Below, piece after piece: positions 9,648 through 13,147 of a DNA stretch of 64,000 nucleotides. The position numbers were made by a program, and so were the translations under genes. The first letter of the stretch is position 1. The number at the start of each line of letters is the position of its first letter. Source of the DNA: a virus (Duplodnaviria; Caudoviricetes); the IMG/VR virus record IMGVR_UViG_3300037249_001368, positions 1 through 64,000 of that record; one strand, given 5' to 3'. A model generated the notes under the pieces. The model was not told where the DNA came from. It searched no databases and saw nothing but the letters and a program-made list of their open reading frames with translations.

Positions 9648-9869
9648 ATGTTGTCACTTTTCTGTAAACACGAAGACGACGTTACCTGTCAAACCATTCT
9701 TCAGGAACACTACGTCAGAGTAAAGCATCATGGTTGGGCACTGCGTTATAACATTATAGCTGTTTGGCGTTGTGCCAAATGTAACAAAATAACATCGAAA
9801 AATGTATTATACAGAAATCTTCATCCCGATGATTACCATGTGAGACATTTTTCAGAAACGGGGTTTTAG
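9648..9869 (+). CDS. Small phage Cys/His protein (LFCKH...CxKC); its stop codon lies inside tRNA-Ala
   Basis: 73 aa; TAG at 9867-9869 overlaps the tRNA. Confidence 0.6.
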   Translation: MLSLFCKHEDDVTCQTILQEHYVRVKHHGWALRYNIIAVWRCAKCNKITSKNVLYRNLHPDDYHVRHFSETGF

Positions 9870-9932
9870 CTCAGTTGGTAGAGCGGCGGCTTTGCAAGCC
9901 GTAGGTCGTGGGTTCGAGTCCCACACTCTCCA
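9860..9932 (+). tRNA. tRNA-Ala(TGC)
   Basis: G3.U70 pair; anticodon arm GCGGC-TTTGCAA-GCCGT; T-arm GTGGG-TTCGAGT-CCCAC; two acceptor-stem mismatches. Confidence 0.88.
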
Positions 9933-9938
9933 CAGTAC

Positions 9939-10170
9939 AGAGTCAATGACTCGATGAATGAGTCTGTTTGGACGAGGGTTCGATTCCCTCCACCTCCACT
10001 CACTGATTAAGCCACAGTGAAGCGTAGTTGTACAGGCGGCTTCGGCCGCCGAATCGGGGGTGACTGGTTTTGACAGCAGATGAGTTGTTCGACGAGACGA
10101 AGTACCGCCATAACTGGCAACAACTATGAAATGAGAGCTGCCGCCTAAGATAGGTGCCAGTCTCAAGCCA
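9939..10170 (+). ncRNA. ssrA: Circularly permuted (two-piece) tmRNA, tag (A)GNNYEMRAAA
   Basis: The 3' acceptor piece GGACGAGGGTTCGATTCCCTCCACCTCCA (ends 9998) precedes the 5' piece GGGGGTGACTGGTTTTGACAGC (starts 10056). Acceptor stem GGGGGTG/CACCTCC with G3.U. Resume context ATAACT|GGC; tag ORF 10116-10148. Outer ends approximate. Confidence 0.88.
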
Positions 10171-10171
10171 C

Positions 10172-10201
10172 AGCCGAGGGCGTAGTTCTCGGCTATTTTT
10201 A
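10172..10201 (+). terminator. Intrinsic terminator after the tmRNA
   Basis: AGCCGAGGGC-GTA-GTTCTCGGCT followed by ATTTTT. Confidence 0.8.
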
Positions 10202-10232
10202 TGCTTTCATCTGAAATAAAAATCGGATTCAC

Positions 10233-10265
10233 CAGCCTAAAACAAAGACCTCACTTGGTTATAAT
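10233..10265 (+). promoter_or_regulatory. Phage bipartite promoter
   Basis: CAGCCTAA-15 nt-TGGTTATAAT. Confidence 0.8.
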
Positions 10266-10748: not shown

Positions 10749-11282
10749 ATGTCAAAAGAAATGCACGAATTATACCGGTATATGACTGGTGAAGAGTTGG
10801 AATACGACAATCTGAACGAGATGTCTTTCAACAGAGATTTTGTCAAATTGGTTTGGTATCAGAACAGTTTTGAAATAATAAGAAACTGGTGCTTAATAGC
10901 ATACGCTGCTTTTTACAGAGAGGGCATAGACAAGATAAACATAAATCATTGGAAATCAGAGTTGAAAGAACACATCAGAAAATCTATGGAGGCTGATATA
11001 AAAAACAACAACAGTAGAAAGTCCCGTAAAAAACTCGCTGATGAGTTATGGATAAGTGATTTAGGATACAATAAGTCCTCGAAAATATCAAAAATTCTGA
11101 AAATAATAAGGAAAAAATTCAGTTCGGAGTATCCTAATTTCAAAGAAAGTGATTTGGTGTATGTTATATCTGTGTTTCAGAAAGACTTGGATAATCTGAT
11201 TAATGTTGTCGTAGAAAGTGATGATGACATTTTGGATAATTTCGTTGATAACTTGGAAGACAGGGTACGAGAACATTTCTGA
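10749..11282 (+). CDS. Helical protein, possibly DUF29-like; paralog of 18495-18986
   Basis: LNEM...NWCL...NHWKSEL shared with 18495. Confidence 0.75.
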   Translation: MSKEMHELYRYMTGEELEYDNLNEMSFNRDFVKLVWYQNSFEIIRNWCLIAYAAFYREGIDKININHWKSELKEHIRKSMEADIKNNNSRKSRKKLADELWISDLGYNKSSKISKILKIIRKKFSSEYPNFKESDLVYVISVFQKDLDNLINVVVESDDDILDNFVDNLEDRVREHF

Positions 11283-11623: not shown

Positions 11624-13147
11624 ATGACAAGAGAATGGAGCAAATATCAGAAGGCGGTATTCGACTTCGTCAAAAACAGCAGAGAATCTGCGGTTATCAA
11701 TGCCGTGGCAGGCAGCGGAAAGTCGACAACAATAGTCGAAGCCTCTAAGATAGCAGTGGAATACGGCTCGGTCTTATTTCTTGCTTTTAACAAAAGCATA
11801 GCCCAAGAGTTAGCCGCCAAGATGCAGGGAACGGGTGTTGAGTGTAAGACATTACATTCCCACGGTTTCAGAGCCATTCAGAAAAAACTTGGTTATAAGT
11901 GCAGGCTTGATGACAGAAAGTGGGAGAATTATATCACCGACAAGGCTCAGTTATACTTCAGCAGTGATGATTTCGATTCTGATGCTGAGATGAACTCATA
12001 TATCAGAGAATGTGTTCAGTTGCTGAATCTCGCGAGGATTAATTTCATCAGAAGGGATGACACAGGCATGATGACTCAATTATCAGAACTTGCTGAGCAC
12101 CACAATTTTGATGTTGATGAGACACAACTGAGAATCGTGAATGATACTCTCGGTTTGGTTTATACTCTAACAGATGTAATTGACTTCACGGATATGATTA
12201 CTCTTCCGCTGAAAAAATCTTTACAGAAGTATCTACCGAAATACGACACGGTTTTTGTAGATGAGGCTCAAGACCTTTCCAAAGCACAAAGGGAACTGAT
12301 GCTTGCATCTATAAAACCAGGAGGCAGATTCATTGCGGTTGGTGATAAAATGCAGTGCATAAACGGGTTTGCAGGCTCTGACATTGAGAGTTTTAATAAT
12401 CTGATTAAGATTGCTGGTCACGAATTTCCGCTGTCAGTCTGCTACCGTTGTGGAAAAGAAATTATCAAACATGCTCAGGAAATTGTGCCTTACATCGAGG
12501 CCTTTGAGGGTCAGGTAGATGGCTGTGTGCATCAAGACGTCAGAGACCTAAAAATGGTGCAACCAGGAGACATGCTTCTTTGCAGAAAATCAGCACCTTT
12601 GGTTTCTGTTTGCTTGCGACTGATTGCCAACGGTTTATCAGCACAAGTGAAAGGTACAGATATCGCTGAAGGTCTTAAAGCAATGGTAAACAGAACAAAG
12701 ACCAAAAAAGTAGAAACCATGCTTGGGAAGCTTCAGAAGGAATTGGATAAAGTCGTGAAAAAGCTGAAAAAGCAAGGAGTCAAAGATGCAGATATTGAGT
12801 ACAACAGCCTGTATGTTACCGTCCAAGACAAAATAGCATGTATAGAAGCAGTTTCCGAAAATTGTACAAAAGTTGAAGAGGTCATAAATAGACTGAACAC
12901 ATTATTCTCAGATACTCGCAATGGCAACGCCATAACACTTTCAACAGTTCACAAGGCCAAAGGTCTAGAAGCAGATAATGTTTTTATACTGCTTCCTGAC
13001 TGTTTACCACTGCTCAGAAAAGACCAGAAACAGTGGGAAATTGACCAAGAATATAATTTGAAATATGTGGCGATAACCAGAGCCAAGAAAAATCTGTATT
13101 ATCTGAATCTTAGTCAGAAAGAATTGAAAACAGTAGAAGTCCGATAA
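11624..13147 (+). CDS. UvrD/Rep-like superfamily 1 DNA helicase
   Basis: Walker A AVAGSGKST; DEAQD; VGDxxQ; STVHKAKGLE; YVAITRA. Confidence 0.92.
   Translation: MTREWSKYQKAVFDFVKNSRESAVINAVAGSGKSTTIVEASKIAVEYGSVLFLAFNKSIAQELAAKMQGTGVECKTLHSHGFRAIQKKLGYKCRLDDRKWENYITDKAQLYFSSDDFDSDAEMNSYIRECVQLLNLARINFIRRDDTGMMTQLSELAEHHNFDVDETQLRIVNDTLGLVYTLTDVIDFTDMITLPLKKSLQKYLPKYDTVFVDEAQDLSKAQRELMLASIKPGGRFIAVGDKMQCINGFAGSDIESFNNLIKIAGHEFPLSVCYRCGKEIIKHAQEIVPYIEAFEGQVDGCVHQDVRDLKMVQPGDMLLCRKSAPLVSVCLRLIANGLSAQVKGTDIAEGLKAMVNRTKTKKVETMLGKLQKELDKVVKKLKKQGVKDADIEYNSLYVTVQDKIACIEAVSENCTKVEEVINRLNTLFSDTRNGNAITLSTVHKAKGLEADNVFILLPDCLPLLRKDQKQWEIDQEYNLKYVAITRAKKNLYYLNLSQKELKTVEVR

Follow-up and report, generated by a model that had tools for sequence, protein, structure and literature searches.

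A circularly permuted tmRNA gene without canonical pseudoknots in a T4-like jumbo phage that probably infects Bacteroidota

Background

Transfer-messenger RNA (tmRNA) frees stalled ribosomes, and the need for its pseudoknots, above all pseudoknot 1, has long been debated. Two-piece forms of the molecule are reportedly found in Alphaproteobacteria, a betaproteobacterial group and cyanobacteria, as described by Keiler in 2000 and by Sharkady and Williams in 2004. Here we describe a two-piece, circularly permuted tmRNA gene in a 64,000 nt stretch of viral DNA (hereafter 'the window'), the first 64 kb of the 178,153 bp IMG/VR record IMGVR_UViG_3300037249_001368 (Duplodnaviria; Caudoviricetes), which is linear, estimated to be 77% complete and has a G+C content of 40%. 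We consider it likely, with a probability of about 0.8, that this is a working gene of a T4-like jumbo phage whose most likely hosts are Bacteroidota, although we infer its function from conservation only.

Organisation of the locus

The gene lies directly downstream of a tRNA gene, with the acceptor piece preceding the coding piece. The features of the locus are as follows.

9860-9932, + strand: tRNA-Ala(UGC), CCA not encoded (ARAGORN; Rfam tRNA, 65.5 bits)
9933-9998, + strand: acceptor piece (3' piece of the two-piece tmRNA), ending at the discriminator A9998; the next bases are CTC, CCA not being encoded
9935-9968, + strand: acceptor arm, the 3' strand of trans helix 2 (P2a' 9962-9968; P2b' region 9947-9954; P2c' GTAC 9935-9938 and GTC 9942-9944)
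9974-9990, + strand: T-arm (GAGGG, loop TTCGATT, CCCTC), 100% paired, with covariation, in 20 relatives
9991-9997, + strand: 3' strand of the acceptor stem, CACCTCC, its 7 pairs 100% kept in relatives
9999-10055, + strand: intervening segment of 57 nt, presumed excised, with two hairpins (10000-10020 and 10035-10050)
10056-10201, + strand: coding piece (5' piece), which begins at G1 of the acceptor stem and extends through the terminator U-tract
10056-10074, + strand: 5' tRNA-like half, comprising the acceptor strand GGGGGTG and the D-loop analogue ACTGGTTTTGAC
10075-10105, + strand: 5' strand of trans helix 2 (P2a 10075-10081; P2b region 10089-10096; P2c GAC 10096-10098 and GTAC 10102-10105)
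10106-10115, + strand: single-stranded linker CGCCATAACT before the resume codon, carrying the family motif WTAAMY
10116-10148, + strand: tag frame GGC AAC AAC TAT GAA ATG AGA GCT GCC GCC TAA, encoding GNNYEMRAAA* (ARAGORN, RF04321)
10132-10165, + strand: helix-5-like hairpin of 14 bp with the UAA stop in its apical part (-16.1 kcal/mol, z -4.0), also present in the minimum-energy fold of the coding piece
10172-10201, + strand: intrinsic terminator, a 10-bp stem followed by ATTTTTAT, 24 nt past the stop codon

A permuted tmRNA with the tag GNNYEMRAAA* was called by ARAGORN at 9908-10239. The Rfam model RF04321 (tmRNA_permuted), a merger of RF01849, RF01850 and RF01851 built from alphaproteobacterial, betaproteobacterial and cyanobacterial sequences, matched 9942-10148 over its full length (model positions 1-213) with 67.3 bits (E 8.5e-11), against a gathering cut-off of 47 bits. 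The order of the pieces, acceptor upstream of coding, is likewise indicated by both the permuted flag of ARAGORN and the passing of the RF04321 cut-off. A preliminary description, drawn from the letters of the sequence, had proposed a circularly permuted tmRNA at this position, and the two detectors bear it out as genuine; direct reading also finds the ends that it gave (A9998 and G10056), the 57-nt spacer and the two spacer hairpins to be exact. In the first of these hairpins TCACTG (10000-10005) pairs with CAGTGA (10015-10020), giving 6 bp around a 9-nt loop, while the second is perfect, GGCGGC (10035-10040) and GCCGCC (10045-10050) enclosing a UUCG loop (TTCG); the spacer as a whole has a folding energy of -20.1 kcal/mol (z -2.7).

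The acceptor arm starts at about 9933-9935, only 1-3 nt past the end of tRNA-Ala(UGC) at 9932, so 3' processing of this tRNA would generate the 5' end of the acceptor piece. With the coding piece extending to the end of the terminator, the mature pieces are predicted to measure ~66+3 nt and ~146 nt, or ~210 nt in total, which makes an earlier estimate of 170-175 nt too low. That description had also held Bacteroidota tmRNAs to be more than twice as long; the gene is indeed much shorter, at about half their length, but the proportion is roughly 55% of 370-402 nt, and not under half. The tRNA-like domain combines a 7-bp acceptor stem with a T-arm whose loop is of the GGTTCGA type, and has no anticodon arm. 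Within the acceptor stem, T9995 pairs with G10058 as the G3.U70 alanine identity pair, a G.U in 20/20 relatives. The tag frame starts without an AUG, at a GGC following ATAACT, and ends in GCT GCC GCC TAA.

A protein-coding reading of the locus was rejected because the antisense open reading frame at 9852-10232 (126 aa) has no convincing Pfam or PHROG match and overlaps tRNA-Ala. Nor was a convincing Pfam or PHROG match found for the small open reading frames around the locus, the one at 10749-11282 having a weak PHROG match (E 8e-4).

Folding of the two pieces

The arms 10075-10105 and 9935-9968 form a trans duplex of 23 bp at -20.5 kcal/mol (z -3.6). When the tRNA-like domain and P2a are enforced, the two-piece fold reaches -76.4 kcal/mol and yields the full trans helix 2, the helix-5-like hairpin and the terminator without further constraint. 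Of the two trans pairings suggested earlier, that of AGCAGA (10075-10080) with TCTGTT (9963-9968) is present, and the corresponding helix covaries across relatives; that of CGAG (10093-10096) with CTCG (9950-9953) is present where the family has its second trans helix, but its register is uncertain, since the minimum-energy fold favours TCGA/TCGA.

The resume codon, at nt 61 (60 nt from the 5' end), follows helix 2 at a distance of 10 nt, and no canonical pseudoknot 1 was found in this interval. Similarly, the ~53 nt past the stop codon contain the helix-5-like hairpin and the terminator only, with no pseudoknots 2-4. The absence of the latter three had been recognised from the outset; that pseudoknot 1 is missing too had gone unremarked. 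Additionally, when the coding piece is free, its resume codon GGC can be hidden within a small hairpin, GCCA-UAAC-UGGC (10107-10118).

A family of short permuted tmRNAs in phages

The gene is not alone. A pattern derived from three members (the 5' tRNA-like half, 30-42 nt, then WTAAMY GGM AA) matched 97 IMG/VR stretches, and ARAGORN, run on 87 loci, made 62 calls that were all permuted (62/62) and comprised 47 unique coding pieces. Distant relatives of the neighbouring helicase in IMG/VR contributed two more RF04321 matches above the cut-off, as well as two further near-identical relatives that fall below it (28.9 bits) and are called permuted by ARAGORN; some related jumbo phages have ordinary one-piece tmRNAs. 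One such relative (locus L088, IMG/VR record G045, ~99.2 kb) has four tandem tRNA-Thr genes (UGU, GGU, AGU, CGU) followed by a one-piece tmRNA with the tag ANDNAFAPLALAA, so related phages differ in the form of tmRNA they carry.

BLAST searches against isolate and curated phage genomes found the family in Suoliviridae crAss-like phages and in Chryseobacterium phage MA9V-3. Five Suoliviridae from human faeces (cr60_1, cr50_1, cr10_1, cr125_1 and cr114_1) carry the GenBank label 'transfer-messenger RNA, SsrA'. Most family contigs are 50-100 kb long, the size of crAss-like genomes, which makes a T4-like jumbo phage an unusual carrier. Two-piece phage tmRNAs are themselves established, 53 unique ones having been found by Buchholz et al. 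2022 (PMC9004378), whose Table S1 marks as 'Permuted' CrAssphage cr115_1, cr114_1, cr10_1, cr50_1 and cr273_1 and Cellulophaga phage phi4:1. Extreme streamlining, first taken for a peculiarity of one phage, characterises a large family that has crAss-like phages at its centre and already figures in GenBank and in that table. The family is common in Bacteroidota phages, crAss-like ones above all, and labelled in public records. A supplementary table of the tmRNA database lists, without comment, 48 permuted genes in Bacteroidota assemblies (18 alpha, 23 beta and 7 cyano), some of which may belong to this phage family. In the literature searched, we found no discussion of the family's Bacteroidota-type origin or of its absent pseudoknots. 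The window's gene is a further member, in a T4-like jumbo phage and beside tRNA-Ala, of this under-described two-piece variant.

Some members escape annotation. ARAGORN misses both L087 (1490-1830 of its locus, IMG/VR 3300014203_000025), which scores 62 bits with RF04321, and L125 (cr53_1, NC_055889), the tmRNA of which is unannotated in RefSeq. The gene at L087 encodes CCA, unlike that of the window.

Shared architecture

Twenty diverse members, aligned to a reference, were compared. Every cell of the acceptor stem and T-arm is paired (100%), G3.U70 never varies and pair 5:69 takes four forms; the covariation score of 0.265, against 0.102 when shuffled, was reached by 0/500 shuffles. P2a, the 7 bp adjoining the tRNA-like domain, covaries as TCTG/CAGA, AATG/CATT, CTTG/CAAG and TACG/CGTA, its pair count being lowered by MAFFT, which misregisters helix 2 by one column in half of the sequences. 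From the joined alignment, RNAalifold retrieved no helices other than the acceptor stem and the T-arm. Because of this misalignment, P2b and P2c were assessed by duplex folding and by comparing each arm's own partner with foreign ones.

In duplex folding the acceptor arm, 26-40 nt long, pairs over its whole length with nt 20-52 of the coding piece, giving a trans helix 2 made of three helices with purine-rich internal loops between them and 16-26 bp in total. With the proximal helix omitted, distal arms pair with their own partner at -11.3 kcal/mol, against -8.4 kcal/mol with foreign partners (permutation p<1e-4); in 12/25 cases the own partner is among the two best. A clean pair swap separates two near-identical members, CAC/GUG in L100 against AGU/ACU in L106, and L087 provides another, GAGCUUACA/UGUGAGUUC against GUACUUAC/GUAAGUAC.

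The layout of the coding piece is similarly constant. In the 47 unique members, 57-66 nt separate the 5' end from the resume codon, which leaves no room for a canonical pseudoknot 1; the resume codon is always Gly (GGC in most) after WTAAMY, and the tag ends are mostly Ala-rich. A linker of 6-18 nt separates helix 2 from the resume codon. Within ~40 nt of the stop codon comes a terminator or a tRNA, the latter 29-42 nt downstream in many crAss-like members, leaving these RNAs without pseudoknots 2-4. The stop codon lies inside a small hairpin in 20/36 members. The spacer varies from 14 to 233 nt, is unrelated in sequence and contains tRNA-Glu at two loci. The window's gene shares this plan, with 60 nt to the resume codon, a helix 2 of 23 bp, GGC after ATAACT and a terminator 24 nt past the stop.

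Several local elaborations were observed. At the two loci with a tRNA in the spacer, L102 (307-773) and L105 (3814-4281; IMG/VR 3300045988_100348 and _112290), a full tRNA-Glu(UUC) is found 63 nt past the acceptor piece, and one precursor would give three stable RNAs. In L134, L137, L133, L161, L172 and related crAss-like loci, a hairpin with the fixed 9-nt loop UAAGAACUG lies ~20-45 nt upstream of the acceptor arm, on a covarying 6-bp stem (AUAUCA/UGAUAU, ACGAUA/UAUCGU, ACAGUA/UAUUGU, AUAGUA/UACUAU); it could be a processing or promoter-proximal element. L134, L137, L151 and other crAss-like loci also have, 29-42 nt past the tag stop and after a conserved ACGUGCUAACUACGAAAG, a sequence with an abnormal anticodon loop that ARAGORN reports as 'tRNA-???'.

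Comparison with known systems

The Suoliviridae tmRNAs (cr50_1, MT774375; cr10_1, MT774382; cr60_1, NC_055891; cr125_1, cr114_1 and cr53_1) resemble that of the window in being permuted, with a Gly resume codon ~60 nt from the 5' end, a tag starting GN, a trans helix 2 and no pseudoknots. They differ in their carriers, podovirus-like and ~100 kb in size as opposed to a T4-like jumbo phage, and in their tRNA-like sequences (GGGGCTG..., AGGAC junction); in addition, a tRNA 29-42 nt after the stop often replaces the terminator, there is an extra covarying 5' hairpin and the tags are 13-14 aa long. The tmRNA of Chryseobacterium phage MA9V-3 (PV245944), a member with a cultured Bacteroidota host, is likewise permuted, with a 59-nt spacer, 62 nt to the Gly codon, the tag GNVIDINKYVAKLEVAA and 97% identity over the T-arm region, but belongs to a different, 103-kb phage, resumes at GGA and has two stop codons.

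The bacterial two-piece tmRNAs (RF01849, RF01850, RF01851) also have the acceptor piece upstream and their pieces joined by the acceptor stem and helix 2, and are matured by tRNA-processing enzymes, as we propose for the window's gene. They keep at least pseudoknot 1 and are longer (~210 + 82 nt in Caulobacter). The window's gene is set apart from these lineages by a Bacteroidota-type 5' half, the Gly resume codon and a poor fit to the betaproteobacterial model.

With the standard one-piece Bacteroidota tmRNA (RF00023) it has in common an identical 22-nt 5' end, the GTTTGGAC junction, the GGC after ATAACT/TTAAAC and a CCA mostly not encoded; Bacteroidota tags include GNENNYALAA, GENNNYALAA and GESTYAMAA. 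Those standard genes, however, measure 370-402 nt in a single piece, resume at about nt 97 and have space for pseudoknots, as against two pieces, ~210 nt and nt 61 here.

Marine T4-like phages with two-piece tmRNAs (OM43 phage Melnitz, pelagimyophages and cyanophage S-CAM1) similarly combine a permuted gene, a T4-like genome and nearby tRNA genes (PMC9004378), but use an Ala resume codon, and Melnitz has a glutamine riboswitch. In the tree of Buchholz et al. the marine phage tmRNAs group with their hosts' alpha, gamma or cyano lineages, Melnitz falling with alpha (PMC9004378); the hosts or the inferred donor lineage of these phages (SAR11 for Melnitz) use two-piece tmRNA. In Synechococcus phage S-CAM1 (locus L233, HQ634177) the permuted tmRNA is unannotated and only 4 nt separate the acceptor 3' end from the coding 5' end; its distance to the resume codon, 63 nt, is similarly short to that of the window's family. 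Jakobid mitochondrial tmRNA (RF02544) is also permuted and extremely reduced, but apparently lacks a tag frame (PMC11915505), whereas the window's gene keeps a conserved one.

Origin of the gene

The clearest marker of descent is the 5' end. The 22-mer at 10056-10077 (one Y) has exact matches in 18 of 185,579 species genomes, and all 18 are Bacteroidota tmRNA genes, from Bacteroidales, Flavobacteriales, Cytophagales and Chitinophagales; its restriction to Bacteroidota supports a Bacteroidota-type origin or adaptation. ARAGORN finds a standard one-piece gene of 370-402 nt at 17 of these loci, making no call in L110. Most of the 18 genes have a GGC or GGT resume codon after ATAACT or TTAAAC, and CCA is mostly not encoded. 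The phage tag GN-NY... moreover resembles the Bacteroidales tag GNENNYALAA minus two residues. The 3' tRNA-like half was rejected as a lineage marker, its exact 30-mer matching standard tmRNAs of Clostridia, Aerophobetes and Saccharibacteria. The betaproteobacterial model beta_tmRNA (RF01850) matched only the tRNA-like part, with 43 bits against a cut-off of 84; the alpha (RF01849) and cyano (RF01851) scores were not displayed, as the match table keeps the best-scoring model among overlapping matches of the same clan.

These features favour descent from, or close adaptation to, a Bacteroidota tmRNA, with a permutation probably separate from those of the alpha, beta and cyano lineages. More specifically, and tentatively, at a little under even odds, the family may represent a further independent two-piece origin, in which a Bacteroidota-type one-piece gene was permuted inside phages, lost all four pseudoknots and came to have an extended trans helix 2 in place of pseudoknot 1. 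The independent permutation suggested at the start is thereby favoured by the Bacteroidota-type 5' half, the Gly GGC, the tag start and the lack of an encoded CCA, but is unproven, the 3' half not being diagnostic.

It is rather unlikely, though the most serious competing account, that there was no separate permutation and that an already short and permuted gene is passed between phages of diverse hosts, or derives from one of the alpha, beta and cyano lineages, with adaptation to Bacteroidota partners confined to its tRNA-like end and the start of its tag. That RF04321 recognises the window's gene, despite having been built from those three lineages, would be expected of such a gene, and the permuted, similarly short tmRNA of S-CAM1 and the permuted genes in Stenotrophomonas, Streptomyces and Bordetella phages, whose hosts lie outside the three two-piece lineages, could be other instances; the matches of the 30-nt 3' half to tmRNAs outside Bacteroidota are also in keeping with it. 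It accounts less well for a 22-nt 5' half found only in Bacteroidota, across at least four orders, for the codon, its context and a tag start shared with that phylum, for the missing CCA, as in most Bacteroidota tmRNA genes retrieved, or for the fit of beta_tmRNA to the tRNA-like part only.

Proposed function and competing readings

If the gene works as we propose, a single transcript would run from upstream of tRNA-Ala to the terminator at ~10201. RNase P would cleave it 5' of G10056, as in a tRNA, tRNA 3' processing would cut after A9932 and after A9998, and the host CCA-adding enzyme would finish the 3' end, the 57-nt spacer being discarded. The resulting RNAs of ~69 nt and ~146 nt would be held together by the 7-bp acceptor stem and the irregular helix 2 of ~23 bp, and charged by the host alanyl-tRNA synthetase via G3.U70. 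Host SmpB and EF-Tu would then deliver the RNA to ribosomes stalled on broken messages, where translation would resume at GGC 10116 and add A-GNNYEMRAAA; as its Ala-rich end resembles known degradation tags, the product would probably be marked for host proteases. Helix 2 would occupy the usual place of pseudoknot 1, ending 10 nt before the resume codon, in an RNA without pseudoknots. The likely benefit to the phage would be that ribosomes are kept free while host messages are degraded during infection.

In favour of a working gene we count the two independent detectors (ARAGORN and RF04321), the intact helices, the covariation in the family, the fixed spacing, the terminator and the presence of a family member in the cultured Bacteroidota phage MA9V-3. 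Several observations weigh on the other side. Among the tmRNA pseudoknots the first is considered the most important, and tagging might suffer from its loss. No SmpB gene was found in the phage record, which is only 77% complete, so function would depend on the host protein. The window's own distal helix 2 arm pairs no better with its partner than with foreign arms (rank 12/25), and the unconstrained fold (-79.0 kcal/mol) leaves out P2a. Finally, an IMG/VR query with the helicase, an exact gapped DNA pattern and two metagenome scans found no close relatives suitable for a test of compensatory changes.

The mRNA-like part might alternatively fold in cis, the tag frame being looped out by GAGAC/GTCTC and GTACC/GGTGC while distal helix 2 does not form in trans. 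This enclosing pairing, put forward in the preliminary description, is present in the window and beats shuffles (-15.4 kcal/mol, z -3.5), has a counterpart of comparable strength in L100 (z -2.9) and would sit well with the unexceptional distal trans pairing of the window. It is nevertheless improbable: it is not conserved, z falling below -1 in only 15% of members, on which ground a family-wide helix closing the tag frame was rejected; it overlaps P2b, including CGAG, and P2c, and so competes with trans helix 2 as well as with the helix-5-like hairpin, in which the 3' half of the tag itself is a better partner for the 3' strands of the cis pairing (z -4.0); and the constrained fold that contains it, at -70.5 kcal/mol, is 5.9 kcal/mol worse than that with trans helix 2 (-76.4). 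It is the weakest of the competing pairings.

Even less probable is that the RNA acts as a decoy, whose tRNA-like domain titrates host SmpB or alanyl-tRNA synthetase and so blocks host trans-translation, the tag frame being irrelevant. Such a role has been proposed for an RNA of mycobacteriophage DS6A that consists of the tRNA-like domain only (PMC4131195, PMC11915505), and an RNA stripped of pseudoknots, in a record where SmpB was not found, could suit it. A decoy would, however, need none of the features that the 47 unique members retain while their tags diverge, namely the tag frame, the Gly codon, WTAAMY, the fixed spacing and the mostly Ala-rich ends. As for a decaying or accidental tmRNA-like remnant, or an artefact of assembly in the gene order, the record is an uncultured metagenomic assembly, but 62 loci from independent assemblies, as well as cultured or curated phage genomes, show the same order and design, no helix is broken, the frame is intact and the terminator is present, making this very improbable.

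The preliminary interpretation is therefore partly supported: it was right in substance, with corrections to structure, size, uniqueness and the missing pseudoknot 1. A widespread natural family that has no pseudoknots yet retains the tRNA-like domain, helix 2, the resume context and the tag offers a minimal system for structural and mechanistic work. Were these ~210-nt RNAs truly to tag proteins, they would be among the smallest natural tag-encoding tmRNAs, no pseudoknot would be required for trans-translation in vivo, and phages of dominant gut and rumen bacteria would routinely bring a ribosome-rescue RNA with tags of their own. During infection, crAss-like and jumbo phages of Bacteroidota would then provide both rescue of ribosomes and degradation tags of their own. 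As regards annotation, the family shows that ARAGORN can miss such genes (L087, cr53_1); what the window's gene adds is the extension of the family to a T4-like jumbo phage, adjoining tRNA-Ala.

Phage genome and host

That the carrier is a phage, as first suggested, is supported by its 178-kb IMG/VR virus record and its T4-like genes. The record encodes a T4-type topoisomerase II large subunit, a Dda-like helicase, a baseplate wedge protein and a large terminase, together with five tRNAs and one tmRNA. Terminase comparison places Tenacibaculum phages PTm1/PTm5 (34%), phage PAU (32%), whose host was reportedly re-identified as Sphingobacterium, and Tenacibaculum phage pT24 nearest among isolates; by topoisomerase II the nearest are the Prevotella Lak megaphages (39%). 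These relationships, with the 5' 22-mer found only in Bacteroidota, uphold the original suggestion that the host is probably a member of the Bacteroidota. No RF04321 match was found in the nearest cultured relatives, Tenacibaculum phages PTm1 and pT24 and phage PAU, so the tmRNA gene is not a trait of that phage lineage.

In a search of species genomes, the best cellular homologues of the neighbouring helicase were from Bacteroidota, at 31-32% identity, others being far weaker, which is weak evidence on the host; one homologue was deposited under a Bacteroidales metagenome-assembled genome. The closest homologues (P0001-P0022, 60-87% identity) are found in ENA/Logan assemblies. Five homologues of this Dda-like helicase (window 11624-13147), P0002, P0010, P0011, P0013 and P0017, are ~840 aa long and have Hom_end/intein-type Pfam domains (PF05203, PF05204, PF14528, PF14890), which suggests intein insertions without counterpart in the window's 507-aa copy.

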